Positions 10,106-50,356 of a stretch of 64,000 bases of DNA are shown here, in pieces. The stretch comes from a bacterium (GTDB taxonomy: Bacteria; Patescibacteriota; Minisyncoccia; UBA6257; 2-01-FULL-56-20). A program made the translations under genes and the position numbers. Each line of letters starts with the position of its first letter. Position 1 is the first letter of the stretch. Under the pieces are notes generated by a model that saw nothing but the letters and a program-made list of their open reading frames with translations, searched no databases and was not told the origin of the DNA. The DNA is taken from the NCBI GenBank assembly GCA_021780195.1, contig JAJXZE010000002.1, forward strand, positions 20,220 through 84,219. The letters are read 5' to 3'.

Positions 10106-11455
10106 GCTCTTATAAAGAATATCCTTTATGGTTAATATCTTCTGGTTGAGCGCGGGATTCTTGTTCACCTCCTGGTTGATTTTCTCGTAGGAGTGGATGG
10201 CGGTAGTGTGGTCCCTCCCCATCTTTTCCCCAATGTACGGGTAGGAAAGTTCGGAAATTTCACGGAGGAGATACATCGCGATCTGCCGCGGCTCCACAAT
10301 TTCCTTCCGGCGGTTATGGCTTACCAGGTCTTCGATGGAAACATTGAAGAATTCAGCGACTGCCTTCAATATTTGGGCGTCCCCGACCCTCTTGGACAGG
10401 TTCTTCGTCGATTTGTCGATGATCTCCTCCGCAAGCGCCATGGTGATCTCGGTGTGTCCGGTTTCCTGGAGGAAGAGGAGCTTTTTCAGAACCCCCTCGA
10501 GCTCGCGGATGTTCTTCCTGAGGCGCCTCGCGAGAAGGTCCACCACGTTGTCATCGATGTTGCGTCCAGCCTCGGAAAGCCTGCTCCGTATGATGGCGAC
10601 GCGCATTTCGTACTCCGGGTATCCGATGTCGGCCACAAACCCTCCTTCAAAACGCGAACGGAGGCGTTCCTCAAGGGTGGGGAGAGACTGCGGCGGCCGG
10701 TCGGAGGAAATAATGATCTGCTTGTTTGCCTCGTAAAGGGCGTTGAAGGTATGAAAGAATTCCTCCTCCGTTTTTTCCTTCCCGCCGATGAATTGGATGT
10801 CGTCGATGATGAGTACGTCGGCGTCGCGATATTTTTTCTTCACGCTCTCGATCCGGTCGTTGCGGAGCCCCCACACCACCTCCCTTGTGAACTGTTCCGA
10901 GGGGACGTATTTCGGCTTTATCTTTTTCTGATAGCGCGAGACGATCTCATTTCCCACCGCCTGGATGAGGTGCGTCTTGCCGAGGCCCACGCCGCCATAA
11001 ATGAAGAATGGATTATATTTCCCGATCACTTCCGTGATCGCCTTCGCGGCCGCGAAGGCGAGTTCGTTCGAGGGGCCGACCACAAAGGTGGAAAAGGTGT
11101 AGCGGGGGTTGAGGTTGGTCTCCGGATCCGCCCTCCCGAGATCGAGTTCGCCGGCCCCGAGCTCGCCGAGCTCCTTCGATGACGCCGCGGCCTTCTGCGG
11201 CGCAGGCATCTGGGAGTTGATGACGAACTCAACCTTCTTCACGGAGTTTTCTTTGTTGCGGAGGATGCCGAGAATGTTCTTGTGATACTTATCCTCAATC
11301 CAGGACTTCGCAAAATTGCTCGGCAGGGACACGTAGAGGGTGCCTTCGCGCCAGTCGATGGGCCGGCTCTCCTTCAGCCACATCGAAAAGTTGGCTTTCG
11401 TAAGTTGGATCTCCATCTCCCCGAGGGTTGATTGCCAAAGTTTTTCGAGATCCAT
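10103..11455 (-). CDS. dnaA: chromosomal replication initiator DnaA
   Basis: Walker [14 protein letters not shown]+ domain, and a C-terminal DnaA-box binding domain. Confidence 0.95.
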
Positions 11456-11622
11456 GTGCGGTGATGTTTATTATTAACTCTTACGCTCCCGCCGTCAAAG
11501 AGTCAAATGAAAGCGTTTGGGGACGGCATGGGTATAATCTGGGGATTCGGCGTCGCGGTAGCCCGCATCGCGCGAGCACGGGGCGCTGGCATATTTTTTT
11601 GCGGCATGATACTATCTTCTCA

Positions 11623-11757
11623 ATGTCGCAGACCTATAATCCCAAGAAGAAAAAGAGGCGGCGGACGCACGGGTTCCTCGCGCGCCAGGCAACTCCGGGA
11701 GGGAAGCGCGTGCTCGCGCGGCGCCGGGCGAAGGGACGCCGCCGACTCGCGGTCTGA
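11623..11757 (+). CDS. rpmH: 50S ribosomal protein L34
   Basis: Sequence [50 protein letters not shown] at 11538-11543. Confidence 0.9.
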
Positions 11758-11773
11758 CCCACGCGAAAGCCGC

Positions 11774-12136: not shown

Positions 12137-12853
12137 ATGAACATCTTCCAGGCGATCTTCTACCAGCCGATCCTCAATGCACTCATCTATTGCTACGAGA
12201 CGATCGCATTCCATAATTTCGGCATCGCCGTCGTCCTCATTACCGTGTTCATCAGGCTCGTGCTCTATCCCCTTTTCCATAAGAGCGCGAAACAGCAGAT
12301 GCTTCTCCAGCGTATCCAGCCGAAGATAAAAAAGATTCAGGAAACCCACAAGAAGGACAAGGAGAAACAGGCGCAGGCGCTTATGGAGCTTTATAAAGAG
12401 CACGGGGTGAACCCCTTCTCAAGCATGCTCCTTATCATCGTCCAGCTGCCCATCATGCTCGGGCTGTATTGGGTCGTGCGCGCGGGGCTTATCCCAGGGG
12501 AACTCACGGGGCTGTATTCCTTCGTGCCGCCGCCCGGGGCGATCAACCCACTGTTCCTCGGGATGGTGAACCTCGCCGGGCCGAGTATCGTTATCATTCT
12601 CCTTGCCGCGCTCGCGCAATATTTTCAGGCGCGGCTCGCCATTTATCGCGATCCCTCGAATACGTCGCCACTCTCCCCCGCGGAAAAGATGGCGCGACAG
12701 ATGGTGTTCATCGGCCCGCTCGTCACCATTTTTATTTTTTATGGGCTTCCTTCCGCCGTCGGCCTCTACTGGCTCACCTCGTCGCTCTTCTCGGTATTCC
12801 AGCAGATCATCATCAACCGCCGTTTCCGCCAGGGGGAGACCGCGGCGGTATAG
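12137..12853 (+). CDS. yidC: membrane protein insertase YidC (short form)
   Basis: Multiple TM segments and YidC/Oxa1 motifs. Conserved synteny. Confidence 0.85.
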   Translation: MNIFQAIFYQPILNALIYCYETIAFHNFGIAVVLITVFIRLVLYPLFHKSAKQQMLLQRIQPKIKKIQETHKKDKEKQAQALMELYKEHGVNPFSSMLLIIVQLPIMLGLYWVVRAGLIPGELTGLYSFVPPPGAINPLFLGMVNLAGPSIVIILLAALAQYFQARLAIYRDPSNTSPLSPAEKMARQMVFIGPLVTIFIFYGLPSAVGLYWLTSSLFSVFQQIIINRRFRQGETAAV

Positions 12854-12984: not shown

Positions 12985-13491
12985 ATGAGCACCTGGGAAG
13001 AATTCGTAAAAAAATTGACGGAGTACATGGGCTTCCGCGACTACCGCGTGGAAGTGAAGCCGGAAGAAAAACACGGCGCCCTCTTTATTTACGACGGCGG
13101 AGATTTTCTGAAGGAGAACCTTCCCTCGGTCGTCGAGAGCATCAATCATCTTATCCAGATGATCGCCAAGAAGAACGGCGCGGAGATGCTTTTCTTCGAC
13201 GTGAACAATTACCGGCAGGAGCGGGAGAATCTCATCGGCGAACTCGCCCGCGCGGCGGCGAAAAAAGTGATGGCGACGAAGGGCGCGGTATCCCTGCCCG
13301 CGATGAATTCATACGAGCGCCGGCTTGTGCATATGGCGCTTGCGGTGCATCCTGAGGTGGCAACCGAGAGCGTGGGAGAAGGGAAGGAACGCTACGTGGT
13401 GATCAAGCTGATCGGCGCCAGTGCAAGCGCCGCCGCCGCGGAAGAAGAAGCAGAAGCGCGGGGCGTTACTGCCCCGAGCTTGCAGGAGTAA
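12985..13491 (+). CDS. jag: Jag/KhpB RNA-binding protein (KH + R3H)
   Basis: C-terminal R3H-like motif YERRLVHMAL. Follows yidC as is typical. Confidence 0.75.
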   Translation: MSTWEEFVKKLTEYMGFRDYRVEVKPEEKHGALFIYDGGDFLKENLPSVVESINHLIQMIAKKNGAEMLFFDVNNYRQERENLIGELARAAAKKVMATKGAVSLPAMNSYERRLVHMALAVHPEVATESVGEGKERYVVIKLIGASASAAAAEEEAEARGVTAPSLQE

Positions 13492-14821
13492 GCTGATAAA
13501 GTTCCTGATTGTATCGATTCACAAAATAGAGCGAACCATTGAAGACCTTCGGGTCCGAGACGTCGAGATTTTGATTTGTGTCGGTCATAAGAGCCGTCGC
13601 CGCGCCGGAGGCGGCATTGATGAGGTAAATATCGTCGGAGGTATAGAGCGCCATCTGGTCATAGGCGTCCGGAAGAGCGGCGGAGGAGAATGCCGCGGTA
13701 TCGCGCGGGATGCCGCAGTAAAGCGCGGGGTAGGTCGGCATGAGCGGCGGGGTCTTCTGCGCCGTTTTTTTATCTGTCGCGGCGGTCGTACCGGCGGTAG
13801 ATGACGTAGCGGTGGACGATGCGGACAAGTTCACGGGCGTCTCGCGCGCGATAGTAAAGGCGCACTTCGACGGCAGAGTCAGGAAATTCAATGCCTGCAT
13901 CGTAGCCCCCGCCGTGTCGTCGAGTGCGAGAGCGTACGCACCGGACGCGCTGCGGGAAAAGATGAGGCCGAGAGGAATGGTGGAACTGGTGGATCCGACC
14001 CAGATGCTCATAAGGCCGGGAGAGTCGAGTGCAATAGGACTAAGCGTCCCCTTCACGAGGTCGTAGACGAGCATCGGACCTCCCGCGTACGCCGTCGGCC
14101 TTCCGGAGAGGACGATTTGGGTGCCCGAGAGCCATTGAGGGACGAGATCCTGCGCGCGGAGCGTGAGGAGCGCCGTCGGAGCGCGGCCCGGGAGTGCCGC
14201 ATTCAGCGTGTAGAGCGTGGTCGAAGAGGCGCCCGCCATAAAGGCGATGCGTGAATTCGAGAGCGACCATGAGGGAGCGATCATGCCCGCGGGAAGCGGC
14301 GTCCATGTTTTATTGGCGACCGTGAAGATGCTCGATTGCGGATTGGTGCGCGCGCCGAAGTTTGCAAGAATCATTTTCCCGTCGTAGGAGAAGCGGGCGC
14401 TTATAATATCCTTGATCTCTATTGAGCTCAGGGAGGAGGTTTGGTTTCCCGCCGCGCCCGCCGTACCCGCCGCCACGGCGAGGATTGTGCCGTTCGGGCT
14501 GATGGCGGTGATGGTCCCCGACGCGTTTATGAAGTAGTCAAGGACAGGGGATGACGCGACCACGCTGAGGGTATTCACCGATCCCTGATTTGCGGCGCCG
14601 GGCATCAGGGCGCCGCCTCCCGATGAGCTTGCGGACGCCCCGGCGCCTCCCGTCGTGCCGGTTTGCGTGCCGCCTCCTCCAACGAAAGGAAGCGACCCCG
14701 TTACCGCTGCCGGAAGGTTTGTAAGCGAGCCGACATTCCCCTTAAAACCGAAGATGAAAACAAGGAAGCCGACACCTGCGAGGATTACGATGCCGAGAAT
14801 AATATAGATGAGGCGTTTCAT
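13466..14821 (-). CDS. membrane-anchored protein with G/S-rich linker and predicted beta-propeller-like (TolB-like) region; first gene-distal member of the T4SS-like operon
   Basis: N-terminal TM (IYIILGIVILAGVGFLVFIF) and repetitive beta-rich segments. The domain assignment is tentative. Confidence 0.5.
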   Translation of the reverse strand: MKRLIYIILGIVILAGVGFLVFIFGFKGNVGSLTNLPAAVTGSLPFVGGGGTQTGTTGGAGASASSSGGGALMPGAANQGSVNTLSVVASSPVLDYFINASGTITAISPNGTILAVAAGTAGAAGNQTSSLSSIEIKDIISARFSYDGKMILANFGARTNPQSSIFTVANKTWTPLPAGMIAPSWSLSNSRIAFMAGASSTTLYTLNAALPGRAPTALLTLRAQDLVPQWLSGTQIVLSGRPTAYAGGPMLVYDLVKGTLSPIALDSPGLMSIWVGSTSSTIPLGLIFSRSASGAYALALDDTAGATMQALNFLTLPSKCAFTIARETPVNLSASSTATSSTAGTTAATDKKTAQKTPPLMPTYPALYCGIPRDTAAFSSAALPDAYDQMALYTSDDIYLINAASGAATALMTDTNQNLDVSDPKVFNGSLYFVNRYNQELYQLTPASSGQ

Positions 14822-14830
14822 GGGTTTTTA

Positions 14831-15418
14831 TTAGAAGCATGCTTCCCATCCCGGGGTCGTGCCGGCATAGCCGCAGTAATGCGGCGGCGGACATACCGCG
14901 CCCGAGCCGGCGCAGGTTACCGTGGGCGAGTGGTCAGAAACAGGAGCCATAAAAGTGGTGGTTGGATGGCTAGAGGCGGGGGTAAGCGCCTGGGTGTTTG
15001 TGCCGGCATCGACGCTCACCGGCTGGAGATTCGGCAGGTTCAGGTTCAAGAGCGCCGGGTTGATAAGCTGAAGGATGAAGTAGGCGCCGCCGAGGAGAAG
15101 CAGACCAAGGAGGGCGGACTGGATCCACTCCTTCCCCTCGCTCTGGCCGGAAGGGTTGCCGGCGGCCGTCATATACTTCACACCTCCATAGACCACGACC
15201 CCGAAGGCAAGGAGACCGCTGATCATGAGGGAAAACTGGTAGAAGCCCGCGATGAAGGCGCCCGGGGAGCTTGTGGCGTTTGCGGGCATGCCGGGGAGAG
15301 AGGAGCTGATGTCAACGGGAGAGAGAGTTGCCGCGAATACGCGGAAAGGAACGGCGGCGAGCGGAGCCGCGAGCGCTAAGACGGAAAACGACGCGAAAAA
15401 TTTATAAATGCGGCGCAT
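14831..15418 (-). CDS. pilin-like (VirB2/TrbC-like) small membrane protein with Cys-rich C-terminal extension
   Basis: Signal peptide plus two hydrophobic helices, followed by TVTCAGSGAVCPPPHYCGYAGTTPGWEAC. Its position in the T4SS-like operon supports the call. Confidence 0.4.
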   Translation of the reverse strand: MRRIYKFFASFSVLALAAPLAAVPFRVFAATLSPVDISSSLPGMPANATSSPGAFIAGFYQFSLMISGLLAFGVVVYGGVKYMTAAGNPSGQSEGKEWIQSALLGLLLLGGAYFILQLINPALLNLNLPNLQPVSVDAGTNTQALTPASSHPTTTFMAPVSDHSPTVTCAGSGAVCPPPHYCGYAGTTPGWEACF

Positions 15419-16097
15419 AGGTAAGGTTCAGGGAGCCGGCCCCGGAGGTCGAGTCGCCTGGATTCGTGATAGTGAGCCCTACCGAAAGAACGGTGCCGGC
15501 GGCGGTCGACGCCGGAAGATTGATATTCGCGGTCTGCGGGTTTTCCGCGCTCGCCCCCGCCTGTCCGTTTACGGACCAGGCATAAGAAAGAGAAGAGGCG
15601 GAAGCGGTATTGAAGAAATAAGGAAGCGCGGAAACCGAAACGGGATTCGCCGCGGCCTGCCCGTTCGGGTAGGGGGCGTTAATGACCGCGACGGGGCTCA
15701 CGAACGGGATGGTTATGTCGTGGGAAAGATACGCACCCTGGTAGCTCGGGAGGGTCACGTTGAGGGTAAGCGATGAGGGAGGGCTGTTGAATGGAGGGAA
15801 TGATACGGTCTGCACCCCGAGACCACCCCCGATCAGGACGTCATTCAGATACCAGTATATGGTCTGGTAGCGGAGATCCACGGGCTTTCCTCCCAAAAGG
15901 AGTTCAAGCGAAGCCGTGATCGTGGAGCCGTACGTGGGGAGCGCCTTGTCGGGATACGCGGCGGGGACATAACTCCCGGAGGTTTTCCACGTGACAAGAA
16001 ACTGCGGTGCGGTCGTCTGCGCGCGAACCGTTCCCGCGGTTGCGGCGGCACCGACGGCGAGAATAAGGATGGCAACGGTAATAGCGAAGCCCTTCAT
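15402..16097 (-). CDS. secreted hypothetical protein (signal peptide MKGFAITVAILILAVGAAATAG)
   Basis: ORF inside the operon. The start at 16097 has an AAGGGG ribosome-binding site. Confidence 0.5.
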   Translation of the reverse strand: MKGFAITVAILILAVGAAATAGTVRAQTTAPQFLVTWKTSGSYVPAAYPDKALPTYGSTITASLELLLGGKPVDLRYQTIYWYLNDVLIGGGLGVQTVSFPPFNSPPSSLTLNVTLPSYQGAYLSHDITIPFVSPVAVINAPYPNGQAAANPVSVSALPYFFNTASASSLSYAWSVNGQAGASAENPQTANINLPASTAAGTVLSVGLTITNPGDSTSGAGSLNLTYAPHL

Positions 16098-16116
16098 CCC
16101 CTTAAGGATACCATTT

Positions 16117-16866
16117 TTACGCCGCCCGCGCCTCGTCATCTTCCTCTTCCGTATCCGTGCTCGGGCTGGGGAATGCGCGCATATTGTCATGCTCCCCCTC
16201 TAAGTCGGGCGCGCCCAATGGTTCTTTGGTGAGGGCTTCCGCTTCTTCCTCGGGGGTTTCCGGTGAGCCGAGCGCTTTTTCCTCCTCCCGTTCTCTCTCT
16301 GCGTCCTCCGTGGCCCTCCCGCCACCGGAGTCCTTCCCCGCGCCGGCGTCGGATTCCGTCCCTGCCCCGCCGCCCGCGCCTTCCGCAGATGCTCCCCGCT
16401 CGCCGGCGCCGGCTCCCGTTTTCACTCCCGCCGCACCGCCCGCTTCTTTTCCGGCGCTTTGCGCGAGATTCTTTTCTGCCCCTGCCGCTCCCTCAAGTGC
16501 CTCGCCCTCTCCTCCGGTGGTCACCGTTTCGGCGACCTTCTCAAGCTTCGGATTGTTGGTGAGGACCATAATCGTGATGACTGCCGCGGCAAGTCCGACA
16601 GGGACCCCAATGAGGTCAAGAACACCGCCGACCGTGGTCCAGAGGCTTACCATTCCAAGGGCGCCAAGCTTCATCACGAACCAGGCGATGAAGATCCCCG
16701 CGATGATGAGGGTGTAGAACTCGGAGCCGAAGAAGATCACCTGTCCGAGCCCGGGGATGGCAAACGAGAGGTCGCTTACGGTCTTCACTGCGGCCTCGGA
16801 AGCAAGAAGCAGGCCCGCCATCACCATGTCGACCGCCGTGAATTTCTTTGCGCCAGCTTCGTCCAT
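16117..16866 (-). CDS. membrane protein with 3-4 TM helices and a disordered G/A/E-rich acidic C-terminus
   Basis: Hydrophobic segments and a low-complexity tail. Tightly packed immediately downstream of VirB4. Confidence 0.5.
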   Translation of the reverse strand: MDEAGAKKFTAVDMVMAGLLLASEAAVKTVSDLSFAIPGLGQVIFFGSEFYTLIIAGIFIAWFVMKLGALGMVSLWTTVGGVLDLIGVPVGLAAAVITIMVLTNNPKLEKVAETVTTGGEGEALEGAAGAEKNLAQSAGKEAGGAAGVKTGAGAGERGASAEGAGGGAGTESDAGAGKDSGGGRATEDAEREREEEKALGSPETPEEEAEALTKEPLGAPDLEGEHDNMRAFPSPSTDTEEEDDEARAA

Positions 16867-16872
16867 GCGCGC

Positions 16873-18609
16873 CTAGAGGTCCGCCTTCTCCTGCAGGAGC
16901 TGTTCAGGGTTCGTCGTGATGATCTGGTCCTCGAAGTACGACGGCACGATCTGCATCGCGACGTGCCGCTTTCCCGCGAAGAAGATGCCGGTGCCCACCT
17001 CGGCGCCGAGGAGGAAGTTCTTCTCGGCATCCGTGAGGTCGAAAGCCTTCGCCACGATGTCGATCGTCGCGGGCGCCTGCTTAAGGAGGAGCTGGAGCGA
17101 CGAGTTCGTGATGATCGGACGGCCGTACGGCGAGCGGAGGAAGTCCTCCACGTCCTGGGTGATTGTGGACACGCCGAGGAAGTATTTGCGCGCGCGCTTC
17201 ACGAGGCCGAAAAGGAAGGTGGCGGAGTCGTCGTTCTTCATCATGATCCACGCCTCGTCGATGAAGAGCAGGCGCTTGGCGAGCTTCGCGCGGATAAGAT
17301 TCCAGATGTAGTTCAGGATCACAAACATGCCGATCGGGCGGAGTTCCTCCTCGAGGTCTCGGATGGAGAAGACGATGAGGCGGTTCGACATGTCGATGTT
17401 CGTCGGCTGGTTGAGGAACCCCGAGAAGCTTCCCTGGGTGTATTTATAGAGCTTTTCCGCAAGGTCGTGTCCGCCCTCTAGGCTTCGAAGTACCGTCTCG
17501 AGGTCGCCCAAGACCGGGGGCTCCTTGCCCGCGAAATCCGCCATGCCCGGGACGATCTCGCGGGAGGCGTAGGTTTCCGTGATCGCGCGGTCGAGGAGCG
17601 CGTCCTCCTCGGGCGTGATCTTGCCGAGCATGAGCTTGAGAAGGCTCGCCAGGTTCACAATGTGGGAGCGGAGCACGTCCGACGGCGCCTCCCCCTCCGG
17701 GATGAGCGGGATGTCGAACGGATTGATGTGTTCGTGCGAAGAAAGCGAGATATTAAACATACTGCCGCCGAAAGTGCTCGCGAGGCGTTCGTATTCGTTC
17801 TCGGGGTCGATCACGATGACGGCCTCGACCCCTTCCATGAGCGAGCGGATGATCTCGAGCTTCGTGGCGTACGACTTGCCGGAGCCGGACTTCGCAAAGA
17901 CCACCTGGTTCGCGTTCTCAAGGGAGAAGCGGTCGAAGATCACAAGATTATTGTTGCTCAGATTCACGCCGTACATGATGCCCTCGTTCGACGAAAGATC
18001 CTCCGAGACGAACGGGAAGAAGGAAGAGATCGGGCCCGTATCCATCGGTGTGTAGATCTGGAGCCGGTCGTCGTTCAGGGGGAGGGCCGACATGAGCCCC
18101 TCGAGCTGTTCGAAGAGCGCGGGCTTCATATAGATGAGCTTCGCCTCCATCATGGTCACGATCTTACTCTCGAGCTTCGCGAGCTCTTCCGCGCGGTCGG
18201 CGTAGATCGTGACGTAGACGCCGGTGTCAAAAAGCTTTTCCTCCGACTGCTGGAGCGCGTCGCGGAGGTTTTCGACGTCGCGGATGGCGGTCTCGAGCAC
18301 CGGGTTTCTCACGAGGCCTTTCTCCTGTTCGTCGTTCATCTGCGACTCGAGCTGGCCGGCCTTCTTGCGGAGATTCTTGAGCGCGGTGCCCGTGTCCACG
18401 GGATTCACGAAGATGGAAACGTCGAAAAGATTCGGGAGGTTAATGAGCGACTCGAACCATCCCGTCGAAAGATAGCGGGGATAGGAGAAGACGAAGAAGG
18501 TCTTGGCGATCTTATCCCCAATCTTCAGGGAATTCGCCGTAACCTCGGCGCCCGAAGGCGCGATGATCTTCTTGATGTCCTTGAAATTGTCGGCGGTTTC
18601 TTCCGGCAT
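16873..18609 (-). CDS. VirB4/TrbE/CagE-family T4SS ATPase, C-terminal ATPase part
   Basis: Walker A AKSGSGKSYATK and a VirB4 C-terminal domain pattern. A 4-nt ATGA overlap with the upstream ORF. Confidence 0.85.
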   Translation of the reverse strand: MPEETADNFKDIKKIIAPSGAEVTANSLKIGDKIAKTFFVFSYPRYLSTGWFESLINLPNLFDVSIFVNPVDTGTALKNLRKKAGQLESQMNDEQEKGLVRNPVLETAIRDVENLRDALQQSEEKLFDTGVYVTIYADRAEELAKLESKIVTMMEAKLIYMKPALFEQLEGLMSALPLNDDRLQIYTPMDTGPISSFFPFVSEDLSSNEGIMYGVNLSNNNLVIFDRFSLENANQVVFAKSGSGKSYATKLEIIRSLMEGVEAVIVIDPENEYERLASTFGGSMFNISLSSHEHINPFDIPLIPEGEAPSDVLRSHIVNLASLLKLMLGKITPEEDALLDRAITETYASREIVPGMADFAGKEPPVLGDLETVLRSLEGGHDLAEKLYKYTQGSFSGFLNQPTNIDMSNRLIVFSIRDLEEELRPIGMFVILNYIWNLIRAKLAKRLLFIDEAWIMMKNDDSATFLFGLVKRARKYFLGVSTITQDVEDFLRSPYGRPIITNSSLQLLLKQAPATIDIVAKAFDLTDAEKNFLLGAEVGTGIFFAGKRHVAMQIVPSYFEDQIITTNPEQLLQEKADL

Positions 18610-18611
18610 GG

Positions 18612-19328
18612 TTATTGGTCGGCCTGCTCCCGGGACACTTTCTGCTCTTGGGGTACGGGGATGCCCTCCCGCTCGACGGTTTGCGGGTTGTAGAAATTAT
18701 AGAAAAGTTCGACGAGGGCATCATCCTCAAGGACGGTGGCCTCGAGACCCGTGACGACGAGCCCATTCAAAACCTGGGCGGTGCGCTGGTTGAGCTGGGA
18801 GAGGTTTTCCTGGAATATACGCTCCGTTTCCTCGTCCCCTTTTGCCTTCTGCGCTTCCGCGGACCCTTTTTTCTTCCCGCCGAAGAAGGAGAATATCCCT
18901 CCCGCGGTTTTCTGCACCGAAAGGGTGGCGGGATAGAACGGCACGACCACGAGGAACGTCTTCTCCATGATCGCATTCTTCTCCACGAAGCCTCTGATGA
19001 AGGCGATATATTCGTCGATCTGGCTCTGGAGGAGCGCGGACTGCTCCCCGTTCTTCCGGGAAGTGAGCGTCGCGATATATTTGTCGATGTTCACCTTGCG
19101 CGAATGAATGACGATCTGAAGCGGGAAATCGATGCCGTTCAGGAACGATTGATACCCCTGAGTGATGATCTCCTGCTCCGTTTCCGACTTGAGGGCGAAG
19201 TTCACCCCGCCCACCATGACGATCTGCCGGAAACTGCCGTCCTTCAGGATGACGGTGCGGTCGCGGATCGACTCGATATTCACAAGGTCGAGCGAATTGC
19301 CGAGGTCATTTTTTGAGGGGAGCGCCAT
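18612..19328 (-). CDS. VirB4 N-terminal domain encoded as a separate ORF (split VirB4)
   Basis: MALPSKNDLGNSLDLVNIESIRDRTVILKDGSF...QIVIHS resembles the VirB4/CagE N-terminal domain. The called ORF extends upstream to 19724, but the realistic start is the ATG at 19328. Confidence 0.55.
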   Translation of the reverse strand: MALPSKNDLGNSLDLVNIESIRDRTVILKDGSFRQIVMVGGVNFALKSETEQEIITQGYQSFLNGIDFPLQIVIHSRKVNIDKYIATLTSRKNGEQSALLQSQIDEYIAFIRGFVEKNAIMEKTFLVVVPFYPATLSVQKTAGGIFSFFGGKKKGSAEAQKAKGDEETERIFQENLSQLNQRTAQVLNGLVVTGLEATVLEDDALVELFYNFYNPQTVEREGIPVPQEQKVSREQADQ

Positions 19329-19354
19329 AGGATTATTTTCCCATAATTTTACGC

Positions 19355-19852
19355 CTACCGGTAGTCCACGCGGCGCGCGGCATTGCGGTCGCCGCTCCGT
19401 TCGCGGAATATCTGGTAGCGCTGGGACATTTTTTGCTCGACGAATTGCTTGTCGGACTCCTTTTGGCCCGTCTGCACCGCGGTCCACGCCTTGTGGAGCG
19501 CCATGCCCTGGGCGATGGCTTCGAGCCGGCCGCCGCCCGCCCGTTCGGGAGTTTTTTGCTGGGGCAGTGCGTGGTGCTCTGCTTTCCAGACGTAGGCCTG
19601 TGGCTGCCAGTAGAAATGGAAGGCCGCGGAGAGCACCTTGGCGAACGGCCGGCCGTTGACCTTCACGAATGCGAGCGCGGCGGCTCCGCCGAGGATAAGG
19701 ACCGTAAGAATGAACCAGAGCCACGTTTGGAGCATGAAGTAAAGAAGGGCGCTTGCCCCCGCGCCGACCCCCACGTAAACGAACTGCCGGAGCGTGAGGG
19801 GCCCGACGAGCTTGTCTTCGGTCTCGATGAACTGCGGGACCTGGAATTGCAT
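19355..19852 (-). CDS. PrgI-family (VirB3-like) T4SS membrane protein
   Basis: MQFQVPQFIETEDKLVGPLTLRQF followed by two TM helices, matching the PrgI family signature (PF12666-like). Confidence 0.6.
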   Translation of the reverse strand: MQFQVPQFIETEDKLVGPLTLRQFVYVGVGAGASALLYFMLQTWLWFILTVLILGGAAALAFVKVNGRPFAKVLSAAFHFYWQPQAYVWKAEHHALPQQKTPERAGGGRLEAIAQGMALHKAWTAVQTGQKESDKQFVEQKMSQRYQIFRERSGDRNAARRVDYR

Positions 19853-19924
19853 GTCCTTATTATAGAGCGGAATATCATAAAGCCGAAGCCCCTCGCGGGA
19901 CGAGGGGCGGACATGATCGTGTGT

Positions 19925-21013
19925 TTACGGCTTTCGCGGCGGCGGAGGAGGCGGAGGCGCGGGTATCAATGGACGCGGCGACGGGGGAAGCGGCGGCCGT
20001 GACGGAAGCGATCCCGGCGGTGGAACCGATGATGCCCGCGCTATCGGCATCTGCGGCGCATGCGGTATCGGAGGCACTGGGAGTTTCGGTGTAATCGGCG
20101 CGGCCGTTGGCGCTGGCGACAACGGTGGCTTCGGCGGGGGCGGCGTCGGTGGCGAAGGTGGCGTAGCGTCGGTGATCTCGGTGACGCTCCTTCCCGCCGC
20201 CGGCTTGAACTCCGTGTAGTGAACGACGCGCGGAGTTTGTAAGGAAGCCCCCGTGGTGAAACCGCTCGTGCCGGACGGCTTCGGTGCCGGGGGCATCTTT
20301 GACGGAATGGTTCCTGATCCGCCGAACTCCAGCACCGCGGGCCTGGACGGCGCCGCCGGTTTTTGTCCGCCGAGCGTCACGCCGGCGATATTCGCCCCCG
20401 GACGTTCAAGGTGGAAGTCGGGAGTTTTTTGGAGAGGCGTCGCCCCCGCATCCTGATGGATTATCATCGGCGCGGGTCCCGCGGCCGGCGGTTGTCCTGG
20501 GACGCCGACAGCCCGCACGTTTTTTAAGCGATCAAATTCTCCGCTCGCTGGCGCCTCGGCCGGCATCTTCGACCAGCCGGGAGAGGAGAGCGGGGGTGCG
20601 GGAGGCATGGTAGGGGTAAGGGGGGGGAGAGGAATTCCGGTATCCTGGTTAGATGTCTGCGTCATGGATGGCGCGGCGGCTAGGAGGCTGGAAGGTTGGT
20701 AGATTTTTTCAAGGTCGTTCTTTAGCGGCGCGAAAACTCTTTGCAGGAGCGATTCTTGAATGACGTCGGCGACCTGGGCGGGGAGTCCGGTTTCTTCTCT
20801 GATTTCCCTCGCAAGGTCATCGGGATGGAGAAATCCCAGAAGAACATATCCGGCAAGTTTCGATATCGGAGCGATTTTTTCCTCCGGCACATGCTGTCCC
20901 TCGCAGGTGTTCCAGAAGAATTCTGAGTTTGTGTCGGAATAGAGAGCTTCCCTTAATATGAGGGGGAGAGAGTCCCACCTTTGAAGCGCCTGATCCTGAG
21001 ATATGTTCATCAT
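19925..21013 (-). CDS. protein with structured N-terminal domain and long proline-rich C-terminal region
   Basis: ORF in the operon. About 200 aa of P-rich low-complexity sequence. Possible VirB10-like linker role (speculative). Confidence 0.45.
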   Translation of the reverse strand: MMNISQDQALQRWDSLPLILREALYSDTNSEFFWNTCEGQHVPEEKIAPISKLAGYVLLGFLHPDDLAREIREETGLPAQVADVIQESLLQRVFAPLKNDLEKIYQPSSLLAAAPSMTQTSNQDTGIPLPPLTPTMPPAPPLSSPGWSKMPAEAPASGEFDRLKNVRAVGVPGQPPAAGPAPMIIHQDAGATPLQKTPDFHLERPGANIAGVTLGGQKPAAPSRPAVLEFGGSGTIPSKMPPAPKPSGTSGFTTGASLQTPRVVHYTEFKPAAGRSVTEITDATPPSPPTPPPPKPPLSPAPTAAPITPKLPVPPIPHAPQMPIARASSVPPPGSLPSRPPLPPSPRPLIPAPPPPPPPRKP

Positions 21014-23241
21014 GTCTTTTTCTTGGCGCCGCCATCATCGCCCCCGCCCTTCTTTTCTTCCCCACCCCCTTTTTCTTCACCCCCGAAGCCGAAGGCGTTA
21101 TTCGCGTACGCATTCTTAAAAGACTTTCGCGCAAATCCCGCCATTCTTGCGCGATCCTCATCCCCGCTCGCCTTCGCAACCCTAAAGTTTTCATCGAGTA
21201 TGGCGAGATACCGCCCATGGACAGCCTTAAGCGTCTGCGATTTCATCTTTGGGATAAGTGGGGCCATCAGCTGAGGCGCCTTTTCAGCAAAGGATTTCAT
21301 GAGCACTTCAGTCGCCGCAGAAAAGCGTCCTGCGGCATCGCGCTTAAATATACCCTCAACATTAAATTTGGACATGTCGCTCTTTTTGAGCGAGTCGACG
21401 AACTTGTTGGTTGCATCCTGAAGCTTCATCATCGCCTTATATCCTGCTTGCGCTGCCTGCGGGAGACGGGAAAGTTCTGCATCCACAGCCCTCTGCTTTT
21501 CCTCCCCCTCCGGCATCTTTGAGAATTTATCCTTCAGTTCCGCGATGGATTTCTCAAGCTTTTCCTTTGCCTCTGGCGTTTTCTCGTCCGCTGGCAATTT
21601 ATTAAATTCTTTTTCAGCGTCTCTAATCTCCTCGTTGCTCCCGAACGCCTTGTCTGCCTCCTTGGAGTTCTTTCCCTGTCCATAGCGCCTTACCTCGTCT
21701 TGGTGGGCGTCGAGCCACTCAGGTGCCGACACTCCCTGAATCGTCGTATCTTTATCGAGCTCATTTTGTTTAATAAGCTTTGCGATGCGGGCAAAGGTAT
21801 CTTCCATGTTCATATTCCCCTTAAGTTCATTCTTGGTGATCGTGGGATCTTCGGACACCTTCTTTTCAGCATCCTTTACGAGGTTCTCATTGGTTGAAAC
21901 GCGGGCGATGCCGCGACCAGCAAGAGAGGCCACCCTGCTATCACTTCTCTGAAGCCTTCCGGTAATATTAAGCTTGCTGTCGGCTTTTTGGTAGGCGAGG
22001 CGCACACCCTTCGCCGTCTGCTTCGTGGCATACCCACCTGCCGCCTTCCCTATCTTGCTTGCAGTCGACTGAACCATCCCGATCGCAGCGCCAGCGCCTT
22101 TGATGCCAAGCGAGTCCGCGGCTTTGAGACCACCGAGGAGTAGGCCGCCGAGGACAACCGAGTCCATCACGGTATATATGATGGTCGTAAAGACGCCCTG
22201 GTTGGTCGTGCCGATGCCCTCTGCACCGGCGAAATAGGTGCTATTAGTTACCCGGAGGGCGAGATAGATAAAGAACAGGGAAATCGCGGGGAAAAATGTC
22301 CATCGGAAAAAGGACTGCCACCATTCCGAAAAATGGTTTCCAAGTTTCGGGAACGCGTAGGTGAGCCACGCGAGAGGGAGAAGGACGAGGAGGATGGCGA
22401 GATAGGCATAGCGGACGAACAGAAGCGCTGCAATCGTAAAGAGTGAGAAAGCGGCTATGGCCAAAAAGATCATACCAAAGAGCGAGTAGAGAACGATAGC
22501 GATTATTTGGTTGGCAGCATCGGCAACGCCTCCGAATAGTGCTCCGAACATACATCCCAAGATCGGACCACCCGGGATGCCCGGGGTGCCGACCGCTAGC
22601 CCCGTTTTGCAACCCTCCGCCGAATTTTTGGAATTCCAGAGACTGAAATCGGGGCTGTCATATCTTTGAATATGAAAGCTGCCAGCGAGGCTTGACGCAA
22701 GACCATCGCCACCGTTAAACGACTGGATGAAATTATTCGACAGGCTATCCGAAAAAGCCACGATTGGGCGCGTGACCACTAGGCCAAAGTTCACGAGGAT
22801 CGCCATAGCGACGAGCTTCCAGAGGAGCTGCTTTACCCCGTAGGTTTGATTTCGCAGGATGGTAGCGAGCGCGATAATAATGATGCCAAGAACAAAGCCG
22901 AGATTCGCGATGGCAAGGGTGAGCGAAAATCCAATTTGCACCATCGGGGAATCGAAGACGTGGCTGTTGAGCGCAAGCATTTGCACAACGAGGAATGATG
23001 CGAGGGAAATTAATATCTTCAAAAACTGATTAATGACATAGGTAACCAACCAGATGCCGGCAAGAGCCGGACCAAGAAATACGGTGGTGAGTACTCCGGG
23101 GGTATCGGTGCGCGGCAAGGTGATCTTATTCGGGTCAGTAGTTTGCGCGCCTGCAACGTGGGCGATAGCAAGACCGCCTAAAAGAACGAGCGCCACAAGA
23201 ATGATGGCACCGAATCGCTTATGATTCGAGATGGCTTTCAT
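21010..23241 (-). CDS. TrbL/VirB6-like polytopic membrane protein with long charged C-terminal extension
   Basis: Signal peptide, at least 6 TM helices, and a K/E-rich coiled C-terminus, typical of VirB6 homologues in Gram-positive-type T4SS. Confidence 0.65.
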   Translation of the reverse strand: MKAISNHKRFGAIILVALVLLGGLAIAHVAGAQTTDPNKITLPRTDTPGVLTTVFLGPALAGIWLVTYVINQFLKILISLASFLVVQMLALNSHVFDSPMVQIGFSLTLAIANLGFVLGIIIIALATILRNQTYGVKQLLWKLVAMAILVNFGLVVTRPIVAFSDSLSNNFIQSFNGGDGLASSLAGSFHIQRYDSPDFSLWNSKNSAEGCKTGLAVGTPGIPGGPILGCMFGALFGGVADAANQIIAIVLYSLFGMIFLAIAAFSLFTIAALLFVRYAYLAILLVLLPLAWLTYAFPKLGNHFSEWWQSFFRWTFFPAISLFFIYLALRVTNSTYFAGAEGIGTTNQGVFTTIIYTVMDSVVLGGLLLGGLKAADSLGIKGAGAAIGMVQSTASKIGKAAGGYATKQTAKGVRLAYQKADSKLNITGRLQRSDSRVASLAGRGIARVSTNENLVKDAEKKVSEDPTITKNELKGNMNMEDTFARIAKLIKQNELDKDTTIQGVSAPEWLDAHQDEVRRYGQGKNSKEADKAFGSNEEIRDAEKEFNKLPADEKTPEAKEKLEKSIAELKDKFSKMPEGEEKQRAVDAELSRLPQAAQAGYKAMMKLQDATNKFVDSLKKSDMSKFNVEGIFKRDAAGRFSAATEVLMKSFAEKAPQLMAPLIPKMKSQTLKAVHGRYLAILDENFRVAKASGDEDRARMAGFARKSFKNAYANNAFGFGGEEKGGGEEKKGGGDDGGAKKKT

Positions 23242-23244
23242 CGA

Positions 23245-25524
23245 TTACGGCGTGGTTCCCGGCGTCGAGGTCGGGTTTGCAATGATCGTCACGCTACAGG
23301 TGGAAGTGCTGTTGTCGGTTGAGGCCATGACCTCCGCGGTAAAGGTTCCGAGCTGGGTGTAGGTCGCGTCGAGCGTGCCGGTGTCGGATGAGATCTGGGT
23401 GGACGAGGCACCCTGAGCGGTCCATGAATAGATCGGCGACCCGTCGCTGTTTTCGTATGCGGGGCAGTCGTTGTTTGCGGCGCAGGCGACGTCGGTCGCT
23501 CCGCCAATGGCGGTAAATTCAACCACGGTCTCTGGGCCGTCGAGCGTGACGGTCTGCGAGGGCGGGTTGCAGGTGACTCCCGGCTGGGAGGACGCGGAGA
23601 TGTCCGTCGAGCCGCCCACGGAGACGCCGGTAAGTCCGGAGTCGGAGTAGCCGCCACCGTTCAAGCCGTTATTGATCGCCTGGTTCGAATAATTGATCGC
23701 GCTCTGTGCGAGAGAGTTGAGGAGCGAGTGGGTAAGCGCGAGCGCGATGCCGGTCCATGTTTTTGCGTTGGTGATAAGGTCGACAGTGCTCTTGAGTGCC
23801 GCACTAAGCGACTGCGCAGTCGCGGCGCCCGGAGAGGTGACTTTCGGTTCGCTCCCGTCCGCGCAACGGCCGCCATTCGGGAGGGTGAGGGGGGTGTCTC
23901 CGGCGTTGCACTGCCCGTTCTTCCCCGCGGGGTAGCTGATGTTGGTTCCCTGTATGGTGCAGATCGTCTTCGTCCCATTGGGATTGCTCCCGTCGGCGCA
24001 TTGCGCGCTCCCCGTGAATCCCGATCCTGCAGTGAATTGAGCGATGGATGCGGCCTGCTGTTGTTCGCCCGCGGCATTGGCAAGCTCGGCATTGAAATAG
24101 AGGCCTCCGTAATAGTTTCCGCTCGGAAGCATGCTTGCGCTGAACGCGGACCATCCGCCGTTCGAAAAGTTGTCGTAAAAATTCTGGAGGGTGTTGCCCG
24201 TGCCGAGCGCCTGTTGGAAAGTGTTGGCGCAGGAATTGCCTCCGCTCGGCGCGTAGAATATCCCGAGCGTGGTGCGCATCTGGGGCGCGAAGCCCGGATA
24301 GACGCACTGCATCTGCTGGTCGATGGCGGCGAGCGCGGACTGCGTATAGGCATTCGCGAGGGTCGTCCCCCACTGCGTGATGAAGCGCGGCGCGCCGCTC
24401 CCCTGGATCCAGGCGAGTACCTTCTGCTGAACGATGGTGATCAGAGCGTTTTTCAATATCTGGAGCGCGATGTCCTGGGCATAGGCGAGAATCTGCCTCG
24501 CAAGCGATTCGTGGACCGAGATGGAACTTGCTAGTGTGAATTTTGAGATCAGCTTTACCGCGGTCTCCGCGGGGATGTCCTCCACGGCAATCTGAGCGTG
24601 CGCGGTTCGGACGGAGAAGATGCTTTCAAGAAATGCGAACGGAGAGGCGGCCGTATTGGCTTCGGAAGAAGGGCCGGCGGGCGGGATGGTTTGTCCCGTC
24701 AATTCCTTCCACTGATTCCCGAGCTCGAGGGCGACGGTATCGTAGCGGGCTCCTTCTGCCTGGAGCACCACCGATGCCCGCGCGGGATCCTGCGATGCAT
24801 TTGCGGCAACTGCGAGCACATTTTTTTCATACACAAGGACTTTTACAAAGTCGCGCTGAAATGCGGCGAAAGGTGCGGGGGTGGGAAGAGCCGCCGCGTC
24901 GGCGAGGGCGCTCTGAACAAGTCCGGAGATGGAGGTCAAGCTCGCCGAGTCGCCCTGGGCAAGCGTGCCCTCAAGGCCAGAGGCCTGATAATATTTATTG
25001 ACGAGATTTTTAATGCCGCTCGCATAGCTCTGGACGTCAGCGGCCGAATAGCGATCCTGGATATTCAGTTTCACCTGCGCCGCCTCGATGTCCCAGTTCG
25101 GGATATCGGTGCTCATAAGGGCGGGACTCTTCGAGAGATTGCCCGCAAGGGCTTGCATGTCCGGCGCGGAGATTATGGGATTCCCGTTCGCATCCGTCTG
25201 TACGCCGGCGGGATTTGCCGCCACGAGATTGTCGAGGAGCGAACTTGCGAGAGAGGCGGTAAGGTTTGACTGGTCGCTTGAGGTTGCGGTCGCCACGGCT
25301 CCGGCCGCCGCCGCCGCGCCTTGTCCTGCGGGAAGGTTCAGGAACGCGGTACCGGCCGCGGCCGCGCCGGAAGCGCCCGCCGCGGTAATCGAGGGGGCGG
25401 AGCCGTCCGGCGACGCCGGCGTGCCCGGCGACGCCGTTTCAATGCCGGCGATAATGAGCGCGGAAGAGCTTGCCGCGGCTGCCAGGATCAGAAACCCGGT
25501 GATCAGCCTTTTGACATCGATCAT
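23245..25524 (-). CDS. large secreted protein (759 aa) with Cys-rich repeat module near C-terminus; candidate surface/adhesin component of the T4SS-like system
   Basis: Signal peptide. Repeated GxCxxGxxP / CADGS motifs. It is the first gene of the operon. Confidence 0.5.
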   Translation of the reverse strand: MIDVKRLITGFLILAAAASSSALIIAGIETASPGTPASPDGSAPSITAAGASGAAAAGTAFLNLPAGQGAAAAAGAVATATSSDQSNLTASLASSLLDNLVAANPAGVQTDANGNPIISAPDMQALAGNLSKSPALMSTDIPNWDIEAAQVKLNIQDRYSAADVQSYASGIKNLVNKYYQASGLEGTLAQGDSASLTSISGLVQSALADAAALPTPAPFAAFQRDFVKVLVYEKNVLAVAANASQDPARASVVLQAEGARYDTVALELGNQWKELTGQTIPPAGPSSEANTAASPFAFLESIFSVRTAHAQIAVEDIPAETAVKLISKFTLASSISVHESLARQILAYAQDIALQILKNALITIVQQKVLAWIQGSGAPRFITQWGTTLANAYTQSALAAIDQQMQCVYPGFAPQMRTTLGIFYAPSGGNSCANTFQQALGTGNTLQNFYDNFSNGGWSAFSASMLPSGNYYGGLYFNAELANAAGEQQQAASIAQFTAGSGFTGSAQCADGSNPNGTKTICTIQGTNISYPAGKNGQCNAGDTPLTLPNGGRCADGSEPKVTSPGAATAQSLSAALKSTVDLITNAKTWTGIALALTHSLLNSLAQSAINYSNQAINNGLNGGGYSDSGLTGVSVGGSTDISASSQPGVTCNPPSQTVTLDGPETVVEFTAIGGATDVACAANNDCPAYENSDGSPIYSWTAQGASSTQISSDTGTLDATYTQLGTFTAEVMASTDNSTSTCSVTIIANPTSTPGTTP

Positions 25525-25614
25525 TGTTTCTATTATAGCTCAATGCCGCGCGCCATGCGAGCGGTTGTTATCCACAAAGTGCCAGTTTTTATGCGGGCTT
25601 CCTGCGGTCGCCGG

Positions 25615-26490
25615 TCACTCTCCGTGCGGCGCTCCGAAGAATTCGCGTCCGATGCCCGCGACGTCGTCAACTGAAAGGTTCTGGGGCCTGAGCGACGGAT
25701 CGAGGCCGAGCTTGGAAAGTCCTGCGGAGATTTCTCCGCGCGTGACGGGTGCGGCGGTCGCGCTGGCCGCGCCGCCGGTTCGTTCGCCGCCCGCGGCAGC
25801 AATGTTATTGAGCAGGGTCTTTCTCGGCTGGGCGAAAAGCGCCCTGAGTGCGGCATAGTACGAAAGCGAAAATGCGCGCGCCTTGTCCCCACCCTCAGCG
25901 GTAGGCGCTCCTTTCCGCGCGAGCCGCATGACAGCGGAATCGACTTTTGGCGCGGGGCTGAAATCCTCCTTGTTGACGGAGAAGAGCGTGGTTGCATCGG
26001 CCCAGTACTGCACGCTCGCGGCGAGCCGGTTCATCCGCGGCGGATGCGCGGCCGTCCGCTCCGCGACCTCCTTTTGCACCATAAGGACGGCGAGTGCGGG
26101 CCGCGGGTCGAGCTCACCGATCTCACGCAGTAGATGGCCGGTGAGGTAGTAAGGGATATTGCCGGTTATTTTATTAAATGCGGGACGAGGAGCGGCACCG
26201 CGCATATGGGTTTTCAGAAAAGAGAGGATATCGTCCGCGACGATCTCGACGCGATCCGCGAAGCCGGCCTCCTTAACGCGCGTCGCAAGGGCCGCGGCAA
26301 GGGCTTCGTCCCTTTCGACGGCGATCACGCGGCCGCCGTGAGCGGCGCATTTTCCCGCGAGCGGCAGGGTGAGCTCGCCGTGGCCCGGCCCGATTTCGAG
26401 AATTGTGTCGCCGGCGGAAAGCTCGAGCGCGGCGACGATCTTCCCGATCACCGTTTCGTTTTTCATAAAGTGCTGTCCAAGACGGCGCAT
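25615..26490 (-). CDS. rsmA: 16S rRNA (adenine1518/1519-N6)-dimethyltransferase
   Basis: SAM-binding motif LEIGPGHGELT and the KsgA family pattern. Confidence 0.9.
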   Translation of the reverse strand: MRRLGQHFMKNETVIGKIVAALELSAGDTILEIGPGHGELTLPLAGKCAAHGGRVIAVERDEALAAALATRVKEAGFADRVEIVADDILSFLKTHMRGAAPRPAFNKITGNIPYYLTGHLLREIGELDPRPALAVLMVQKEVAERTAAHPPRMNRLAASVQYWADATTLFSVNKEDFSPAPKVDSAVMRLARKGAPTAEGGDKARAFSLSYYAALRALFAQPRKTLLNNIAAAGGERTGGAASATAAPVTRGEISAGLSKLGLDPSLRPQNLSVDDVAGIGREFFGAPHGE

Positions 26491-26510
26491 GATGGTATTC
26501 AGTGTACCAT

Positions 26511-29626: not shown

Positions 29627-29709
29627 AAGAGCGACATGGCCGGGAGAAGCGGTGCGCTACCCCCGCACGGGACCCGCACATGCCCGCTCCCCTGCCACCC
29701 CGTGCGCCG

Positions 29710-33991: not shown

Positions 33992-34049
33992 GGAGGGCAG
34001 GAACGGGCAACGCAACATAAAAAGTCATCACTATAAAATATTCATCATC

Positions 34050-50350: not shown

Positions 50351-50356
50351 CAGCAC

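Follow-up and report, generated by a model that had tools for sequence, protein, structure and literature searches.

The type IV secretion systems (T4SS) of the Patescibacteria have a VirB4 clade nested in the conjugation class MPF_FATA, and have been described in 2,407 assemblies (Quinonero-Coronel et al. 2025, PMC12102498). According to this 2025 survey TrsD is the most abundant T4SS component in the phylum, VirD4 homologues occur in most genomes and usually lie far from virB4, and relaxases are nearly absent, with 109 in 3,035 genomes (PMC12102498). The T4SS of the Saccharibacterium Southlakia epibionticum is essential for epibiotic growth (Wang et al. 2023, PMC10633639); it bears pilins, depends on them, and is without recognizable coupling or relaxase proteins (PMC10633639, PMC12857230), and tubular structures, possibly T4SS pili, are seen at a parasite-host interface (bioRxiv 10.64898/2026.06.21.733656). 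Here we describe a T4SS/pilus gene cluster of ten consecutive, tightly packed open reading frames (ORFs) on the minus strand, at positions 13466-25524 of a 64-kb stretch of DNA from a bacterium of the Minisyncoccia (contig JAJXZE010000002.1, assembly GCA_021780195.1); the whole of this stretch is referred to as the window. Taken as a whole, the cluster is very probably a vertically inherited, origin-proximal T4SS of the Paceibacteria that serves an epibiotic role and not conjugation.

The locus has much in common with the Patescibacteria-clade T4SS (PMC12102498; S. epibionticum SEML1_0006-0019, PMC10633639): its VirB4 finds its best matches among patescibacterial proteins, a TrsD-like ORF lies beside virB4, PrgI/VirB3, VirB6/TrbL and VirB2-like pilin components are present, and there is neither a relaxase nor a type IV coupling protein (T4CP) nearby. 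Its position by dnaA, dnaN, rnpA, rpmH and ksgA is that reported for Paceibacteria T4SS (PMC12102498). It differs from the loci with pilin arrays, reported especially in Saccharimonadia and Microgenomatia, in having a single pilin gene; no VirB8 or in-operon VirB1 was recognised in it; and accessory genes that were left unannotated in the 2025 survey are given folds here, namely a TolB-like propeller, a tandem immunoglobulin-like (Ig) protein, and a protein in which an anchor module, a possibly VirB5-like domain and a PKD domain seem to have been fused. Every testable defining feature of the Patescibacteria-clade T4SS is found in the locus, and the relaxase, T4CP, mobility and VirB8-like protein of conjugative elements are not. 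Since TrsD, the pilins, the lack of relaxases and the dnaA-proximal position are all described in PMC12102498 and reviewed in PMC12857230, the system is already known, and the locus is an ordinary member of the kind described in 2023-2025. The additions made here are modest and partly hypothetical: the accessory folds, the fusion history and VirB5-like N-terminus of a 759-aa protein, the variable tail of the pilin, and a conserved DnaA box.

An earlier note on this DNA had proposed a compact minus-strand T4SS-like cluster of ten genes, and both the ORFs and the curated family matches bear this out, with PrgI, the VirB4 ATPase and the T4SS pilin all scoring above curated thresholds of the Pfam and NCBIfam T4SS profiles. 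The several ATGA overlaps that it reported come down to one (21010-21013). One further junction overlaps by 17 nt (15402-15418), and the others are gaps of 2-26 nt, except for a 72-nt gap at 19853-19924.

A scan for the VirB4 ATPase in one genome per GTDB species yielded 573 relatives, of which the best 80 (56-87% identity) were used for locus comparisons, made by tblastn of all window proteins against the 80 related loci. The best 80 of the 573 are metagenome-assembled genomes titled Paceibacterota, Minisyncoccia, Parcubacteria or Patescibacteria group, or carrying the names of candidate phyla (Lipton-, Wolfe-, Harrison-, Colwell- and Jorgensenbacteria), and they include a few generic titles ("uncultured bacterium") and about 24 automatically titled bins labelled Saccharibacteria. 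Nearly everywhere the gene order is uvrD-ksgA-759-743-Pro-rich-prgI-trsD-virB4-(transmembrane protein)-Ig-pilin-propeller, followed by jag-yidC-rnpA and then by dnaA-dnaN, where 759 and 743 denote proteins of those lengths; recurrence of this order in 80 species-level genomes excludes chance. No protein here is as strongly conserved as VirB4: it shares 84-87% identity with the nearest species representatives, against 69-81% for DnaA in the same loci and only 30-45% for the extracytoplasmic proteins. An identity of VirB4 at or above that of DnaA, together with the low identity of the surface parts, points to vertical inheritance, strong constraint on the motor and fast evolution of the surface. 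The titles of the 80 best relatives, the dnaA context, the type of VirB4 (CD1110) and the missing transfer genes all support the earlier reading of the cluster as a T4SS of the kind found in Patescibacteria, or the candidate phyla radiation. Judged from its best matches and not from a tree, the VirB4 would belong to a Patescibacteria clade derived from monoderm MPF_FATA conjugation machinery.

When about 48 ORFs from all parts of the window were scanned with Pfam and NCBIfam, neither a coupling protein of the VirD4/TcpA type nor a relaxase or an integrase was found. The one secretion ATPase of the T2SSE family in the window, a 598-aa protein encoded at 2508-4304 on the minus strand, was considered as a VirB11 and rejected, as it is of GspE/PilB type by score (GspE 454, PilB 430 and VirB11 37 bits) and lies 9 kb outside the cluster. 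It stands alone between ruvB (1268-2260) and a YebC-family gene (within the ORF 5002-5820), with no neighbouring pilus genes recognised. The stated absence of a coupling protein, relaxase and VirB11 therefore holds within the 64 kb. For a VirB8-like protein of the NTF2 fold the best candidate in the cluster was the ORF 15402-16097, which was ruled out as it encodes tandem Ig/fibronectin type III (FnIII) domains.

These results bear directly on the question of whether the cluster is an ordinary integrative conjugative element (ICE), or a recent remnant of one, whose coupling protein, relaxase and oriT lie outside the window. The recognisable parts are all homologous to Gram-positive conjugation proteins, the VirB4 scores above the cutoff of the CD1110 conjugative-transposon family, and T4CP homologues are common elsewhere in patescibacterial genomes; yet the same gene order and the same housekeeping context are kept in 80 species, down to 56% VirB4 identity, and VirB4 is as conserved as DnaA. 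The GC content of the locus is not atypical, the 64 kb yielded none of the three marker proteins (integrase, relaxase, T4CP), and relaxases are rare in the phylum at large. The fixed order, the housekeeping context and the DnaA-like conservation show that the locus is not a mobile element, and its identity as an ICE is largely refuted by the conserved synteny, leaving it a highly improbable explanation. That a T4CP and a relaxase stand just beyond the cluster, as the earlier note had allowed, is very unlikely given that the flanks are conserved housekeeping genes both in the window and in the relatives.

The motor of the system is a VirB4-family ATPase corresponding to the C-terminal 578 aa (16873-18609, minus strand), which matches Pfam P-loop_TraG (3.4e-26) and NCBIfam conju_CD1110 (4.6e-121); the latter match, of 405 bits against a cutoff of 325, is to its best curated VirB4 family, of the Firmicutes CD1110 type. 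A Walker A-like AKSGSGKS is present in the translation, and the Walker B motif LLFIDEAW occupies residues 447-454. The VirB4 N-domain is a separate, adjacent TrsD-like ORF of 238 aa (18612-19328, minus strand; most plausible start 19328, MALPSKND...), as the earlier description of a two-ORF VirB4 had it, with matches to VirB4_plasma (2.5e-10), TrsD (3.2e-6) and VirB4_CagE (1.4e-5) that are all under their curated cutoffs and cover model positions 10-181. This ORF corresponds to the component called TrsD in the survey (PMC12102498). Of 79 related species, 74 keep the two ORFs separate. All three relative frames occur among these, and the junction sequences are unrelated, so that the split is not an assembly error; a frameshift or sequencing error was rejected on the same grounds. 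To judge from these comparisons the split is an old and stable feature. A single TrsD-VirB4 ORF of about 781-795 aa is found in the remaining five (L043, L048, L053, L072 and L073). These fused loci are from more distant Paceibacteria lineages, with VirB4 at about 9320-11767 of each locus.

A CD1110-type VirB4, a PrgI, a VirB6-like protein and the absence of outer-membrane core components are shared with the Firmicutes MPF_FATA systems (CTn2/CD1110, pCF10 Prg/Pcf, pGO1 Trs), and the pGO1 subclass also has a separate TrsD-like N-domain ORF next to the VirB4 ATPase. Unlike those systems, the locus has no relaxase, T4CP, VirB8-like (NTF2) protein or PrgK/TraG-type hydrolase in the operon, is not on a mobile element, and encodes a VirB2-type pilin, which they are without.

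The PrgI-like assignment of the small membrane protein of 165 aa at 19355-19852 (minus strand) is secure, the Pfam PrgI match (2.2e-12) reaching 47.8 bits against a gathering score of 27, and this PrgI/VirB3-like gene occupies the same position in 75 of the 80 related loci. The 743-aa protein (21010-23241, minus strand) had been read as TrbL/VirB6-like, and this is supported through its orthologues and homologues together with a weak profile alignment. Hydropathy indicates a signal or transmembrane segment plus about 7-8 transmembrane helices at residues 12-370, and a long charged C-terminal domain follows (about 400-743), which makes this an extended polytopic membrane protein. The protein itself has no match in Pfam or NCBIfam, and its family profile finds no relatives among sequences of the Protein Data Bank (PDB). 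Among 46 syntenic orthologues, Pfam TrbL matches five (best 6.2e-6) and TrbL_4 two; among 120 listed database homologues, PF19590, which we take to be TrbL_3, is found in 15 and PF04610 TrbL in two. Aligned by hhalign, the transmembrane part of the family places residues 274-316, its conserved P...F...W region, onto residues 166-208 of the VirB6 protein TrwI of R388 (E 0.015).

The pilin-like protein with two transmembrane helices proved to match Pfam T4SS_pilin at 31.6 bits against a gathering score of 26.6, and we regard it as the precursor of a VirB2-type T4SS pilin (195 aa; 14831-15418, minus strand). Hydropathy and the positions of its cysteines show a signal peptide, the two helices and a C-terminal extension whose ~70 aa finish with a four-cysteine motif. 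Orthologues (L001-L056) retain the VirB2 core but differ in this extension, which may be missing altogether (117 aa in total) or exceed 300 aa and contain as many as 32 cysteines. No second pilin gene is present in the window. The variability of the tail suggests a decorated pilus surface that may be under diversifying selection.

Several accessory proteins are encoded between and around these components. The 262-aa ORF next to the pilin gene has its true start at 16097 and encodes 231 aa (15402-16097, minus strand), an identical protein being present in a public collection. An AlphaFold2 (AF2) model (pLDDT 90.8, pTM 0.76) shows a bitopic protein whose N-terminal transmembrane helix leads into a tandem pair of extramembrane Ig/FnIII-like beta-sandwich domains, and Foldseek against the PDB finds tandem FnIII/Ig modules (3pdd at 3.3e-7, SiiE, CEACAM); the family profile finds no relatives among PDB sequences. 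The gene is present in 68 of the 80 related loci. Its product was also considered as a VirB8 and rejected, the fold not being NTF2-like and hhalign against TrwG giving nothing. At the end of the operon, in the window as in 54 of the 80 loci, stands the gene of a bitopic TolB-like (PD40) beta-propeller protein of 451 aa (13466-14821, minus strand; family profile against TolB structures 2e-9), with a transmembrane segment at residues 5-23 and a Gly-rich linker before the propeller.

Between virB4 and the Ig-like gene lies a T4SS-associated polytopic membrane protein of 249 aa (16117-16866, minus strand), with an acidic N-terminus, 3-4 transmembrane helices by hydropathy and a disordered tail rich in Gly, Ala and Glu. 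A counterpart of the same architecture occupies this place in most of 62 related loci, the counterparts being so low in sequence similarity that tblastn finds four only. The 362-aa Pro-rich protein (19925-21013, minus strand) has, by composition and hydropathy, a conserved N-terminal domain of ~100 aa and a largely disordered tail with 21% proline, and is without a transmembrane segment or signal peptide; it has syntenic orthologues in 40 of the 80 loci, and its family profile finds no Pfam or PDB relatives. It may act as an adaptor in the cytoplasm or may itself be a substrate.

A VirB2-type pilin with a variable, surface-exposed tail, several adhesin-like proteins with Ig, PKD or propeller domains, and the lack of a coupling protein would also suit an organelle for adhesion alone, in which VirB4, VirB6 and VirB2 build a fibre for host attachment and no substrate is translocated. 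However, Patescibacteria already adhere by type IV pili (PMC12102498, PMC12857230), a PilB-type ATPase is encoded in this window, and active transport would be in keeping with a VirB6 channel protein of extended form and with how extremely VirB4 is conserved. This alternative, which overlaps with an epibiotic secretion system and differs from it only in whether anything passes through, seems to us unlikely.

The most complex of the accessory proteins is the 759-aa envelope protein encoded by the first gene of the cluster (23245-25524, minus strand), whose domains were assigned from an AF2 model (pLDDT 71.8), Foldseek and the Pfam matches of its orthologues. It begins with a transmembrane anchor (7-25), a disordered linker and a confidently modelled helical module (about 88-277), and continues, past a disordered stretch, with an internal, degenerate signal-peptide-like segment ending AHA|Q (about 297-312). 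In the conserved central helical domain (about 320-620; motif WIQGSGAPRFITQWG) the model has long helices at 331-499 and 566-622 around a cysteine-containing beta insert, and the protein ends in a PKD/Ig domain (about 650-750) of high AF2 confidence. This last domain alone finds neighbours by Foldseek in the PDB, and Pfam PKD is matched by 8 of 35 orthologues. The description of the protein as Cys-rich was not upheld: it has 10 cysteines (1.3%), several of them nearly invariant, and is not compositionally Cys-rich. Its homologues are all from uncultured metagenome sequences, those that are named being mostly Paceibacterota, Minisyncoccia or Patescibacteria.

In distant Paceibacteria relatives the N-module and the central domain are separate adjacent ORFs. 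The stand-alone central protein (~500 aa) has a signal peptide at its N-terminus, and after it comes A-x-A / (Q/G)-I-P-V-x-D or by I-P-V-T-I-V, as in the N-termini KASGMPVVDGA (L049), TYAIPVVDAG (L054), AQAQIPVTDVA (L058) and THAIPVTIVGG (L037). Both variants also occur in proteobacterial VirB5, where TrwJ has MAQGIPVFDG and others have AQIPVTDGAS and AGIPVTIVADVP. In the window protein the VirB5-type motif is internal and degenerate (AHAQIAVEDIP; context SVRTAHAQIAVEDIP). Because the signal-peptide/IPV segment is internal here and N-terminal in the stand-alone orthologues, the 759-aa gene appears to be a fusion made in the clade of the window.

In VirB/Trw operons virB5 immediately precedes virB6, and the 759-aa gene stands in the same relation to the VirB6-like gene. 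The locus resembles the MPF_T systems (R388 TrwL/VirB2, TrwJ/VirB5, TrwI/VirB6) both in a VirB2-family pilin and in a gene upstream of virB6 whose stand-alone orthologues start with a signal peptide and IPVxD or IPVTIV; unlike them, it has no VirB7, VirB9, VirB10 or VirB11, and VirB5 homology is undetectable past a 20-residue N-terminal motif. NCBIfam VirB5 (TIGR02791) matches 2 of 20 family members weakly (E 0.024), the matches of five homologues to Pfam DUF4141 stop short of its gathering score of 30, the best of them at 29.5 bits, and hhalign of the central family with ten VirB5 sequences aligns only a 20-column N-terminal motif (E 0.004, probability 8%). No match was obtained by hhalign of the 759-aa family with the single TrwJ sequence, by the profiles of this family and of the VirB5-like core against PDB sequences, or by tblastn of that core against 72,556 plasmids. 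VirB5 homology is possible but unproven, and the central domain is a candidate for a tip or stalk protein of the VirB5 kind that has been joined to an anchor module. Our literature search found no report of a VirB5 component in the Patescibacteria-clade T4SS.

The cluster is embedded in housekeeping genes. On its jag side are jag itself (12985-13491), yidC (12137-12853), rpmH (about 11623-11757, with rnpA next to it), dnaA (10103-11455) and dnaN (8850-9962), and on the other side ksgA (25615-26490), a UvrD/PcrA helicase gene (26511-28538) and comM (29710-31368), the last three on the minus strand. DnaA boxes are clustered at 9963-10105, in the dnaA-dnaN intergenic region, and the cumulative GC skew is lowest near 10 kb, which places the T4SS genes within a few kb of the replication origin; the box cluster is likely to be oriC. 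The T4SS genes, ksgA, uvrD and comM (13466-31368) are all minus-strand genes located rightward of the skew minimum, an orientation conserved in the relatives, and from this orientation ~18 kb beside the origin would be transcribed head-on to replication.

Two genes upstream of the cluster a LysM-LysM-M23 peptidoglycan endopeptidase is encoded on the plus strand (28538-29626; Pfam Peptidase_M23 5.2e-26, LysM 5e-19), and its position is kept in 8 related loci among those reaching that far. Patescibacterial VirB1-like proteins often have M23 and LysM domains, and an association of VirB1 homologues with virB4 sets the Paceibacteria apart from the other classes (PMC12102498). The enzyme is a possible cell-wall-remodelling partner, an analogue of VirB1, whose membership in the T4SS is uncertain.

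The presence of comM and a UvrD/PcrA helicase gene just upstream raises a different explanation, that of a competence T4SS which, like Helicobacter ComB or archaeal Ced, takes up DNA and imports nucleic acids of the host or the environment as a source of nucleotides. Helicobacter ComB, archaeal Ced and Bordetella Ptl all work without a coupling protein or relaxase, and the locus, like ComB, has no T4CP, relaxase or VirB11. Ptl and Brucella are the examples given for such systems in the survey, in which the T4SS loci of the ABY1 class are also found together with competence and recombination genes (PMC12102498), and a preprint links VirB4 with macromolecule transfer and argues for the acquisition of host RNA in a cultivated relative (bioRxiv 10.64898/2026.06.21.733656). 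On the other hand, uvrD, ksgA and comM have housekeeping functions and are neighbours simply as members of the conserved origin region, no DNA-binding or DNA-processing protein is detectable in the operon with Pfam and NCBIfam, and ComB, Ced and Ptl have different subunit sets and envelopes, with no sign here of DNA-handling partners. Saccharibacteria competence, moreover, is dependent on ComEC and type IV pili (PMC12857230). In the account that this review gives of the S. epibionticum work, competence needs type IV pili and ComEC, and deletion of comEC ends transformation and not viability, whereas the T4SS is essential (PMC12857230 on PMC10633639). We consider DNA uptake to be quite improbable as the function of the locus.

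Upstream of the 759-aa gene is a putative promoter, P1 (25525-25576, minus strand), in which a perfect DnaA box, TGTGGATAA, on the coding strand (25568-25576) is separated by a 30-nt spacer from a TATAAT (25532-25537). The TATAAT is only 7 nt upstream of the first ATG, which suggests a leaderless or near-leaderless transcript. The window contains two perfect DnaA boxes in all, the other one lying in the dnaA-dnaN intergenic cluster. A box with no more than one mismatch is found at the same offset and on the same strand in 9-12 of 17-18 close relatives, against a background of 0.33 boxes per kb and of 0-1 of 20-30 loci for seven other operon genes; the intergenic sequence flanking the box is not conserved, and relatives without a box have a TTGACA -35 instead. 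That the DnaA box ties expression of the T4SS to the replication initiator is suggestive and unproven. The literature search yielded no DnaA box at the promoter of a Patescibacteria-clade T4SS, nor any such report in Patescibacteria.

The earlier view of a single operon holds as far as the tight packing of the ten genes is concerned, but the intergenic region 19853-19924 suggests two transcription units. It contains, on the minus strand, a terminator-like GC hairpin (about 19888-19908; -24.7 kcal/mol, z = -2.6). A second TATAAT (19859-19864) follows it, leaving 6 nt to the prgI ATG, and several relatives have a hairpin with a T-run and a TATAAT or TACAAT at the same place before prgI. The consensus scan did not score the hairpin in the window as a terminator, its T-run being weak, and a generic promoter and terminator scan gave no more sites than shuffled sequences. 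Because of the hairpin and the second TATAAT there are probably two near-leaderless units, one with the genes of the 759-aa, 743-aa and Pro-rich proteins and one from prgI through the propeller gene.

A mechanism can be proposed from these parts. The VirB4 hexamer, with its separately encoded N-domain, would dock on PrgI/VirB3 and on the extended VirB6/TrbL channel protein, pull the VirB2-type pilin out of the membrane, and polymerise a pilus or tube through the wall. Fast-evolving extracytoplasmic proteins would scaffold or tip this structure and contact the host cell, the host-contact set comprising the 759-aa anchor/VirB5-like/PKD protein, the tandem-Ig protein, the TolB-like propeller and the variable cysteine-containing tail of the pilin. 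Transcription would start from the two near-leaderless TATAAT promoters, the first with its conserved DnaA box tying expression to the replication initiator. The apparatus would serve an epibiotic lifestyle through adhesion and the exchange of macromolecules with the host, and not conjugative export of DNA; we infer host interaction rather than conjugation as the function of this locus.

Several points weigh against this interpretation. The function of the locus in this organism is predicted from its genes, the membership of its VirB4 in the Patescibacteria clade rests on best matches and not on a tree, and the VirB6 identity of the window's own protein leans on orthologues and a weak pairwise profile match. 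Neither a VirB8-like nor a VirB1-like component was recognised inside the operon. A T4CP may be encoded elsewhere in the genome, which would leave room for the transfer of DNA or protein, and the readings of the promoters, leaderless transcripts, DnaA box and terminator are inference, the generic scan being at the level of shuffles. A more elaborate proposal joins a complete VirB2/VirB5/VirB6 pilus module on a monoderm T4SS with a pilin tail for host specificity and a leaderless promoter that DnaA would activate or gate. In this scheme a true VirB5 would have been fused to an anchor module and a PKD adhesin domain, with the old signal-peptidase site kept internally, and the hypervariable cysteine-containing tail of the single pilin would set host specificity. 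We offer the combination tentatively, as possible and somewhat short of probable.

Further features of the window lie apart from the cluster. A tRNA-Ile with anticodon TAT (39680-39754, plus strand) hints at an unusual strategy for decoding AUA, a codon that in most bacteria is read by a lysidine-modified CAT tRNA. A membrane H+-pyrophosphatase gene (33663-36050, plus strand; Pfam 5.5e-262) directly follows nusA and is notable in an organism expected to have a minimal energy metabolism. A protein with HTH and Fic/DOC domains (43278-44207, minus strand) adjoins tRNA-His (42948-43019), a 480-aa ORF (45004-46446) has only a faint pro-kumamolisin-activation match, and a 940-aa ORF without Pfam or NCBIfam match (46527-49349, minus strand) adjoins a TrmB-like regulator (49354-50184). 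The stretch 50000-58400 is of lower GC content (0.51-0.55 versus about 0.59) and may be an island or defence locus; it encodes a radical-SAM/4Fe-4S protein (52570-53205), a CDC48-like AAA ATPase (53202-55010) with weak similarity to the anti-phage protein IteA, and several ORFs without family matches.

Few machines have been shown to be essential to epibiotic life in the Patescibacteria, a very large and mostly uncultivated radiation, and their T4SS is among them. The locus described here is a clean and complete Paceibacteria example of it, in which the split of VirB4 is seen to be ancient and may have been reversed in a few lineages. If confirmed, the VirB5-like component and the DnaA box at the promoter would sharpen models of pilus assembly and of the timing of pilus expression, and the box, if it acts as proposed, would couple assembly of the host-contact machine to the initiation of replication, beyond the effect of gene dosage alone.

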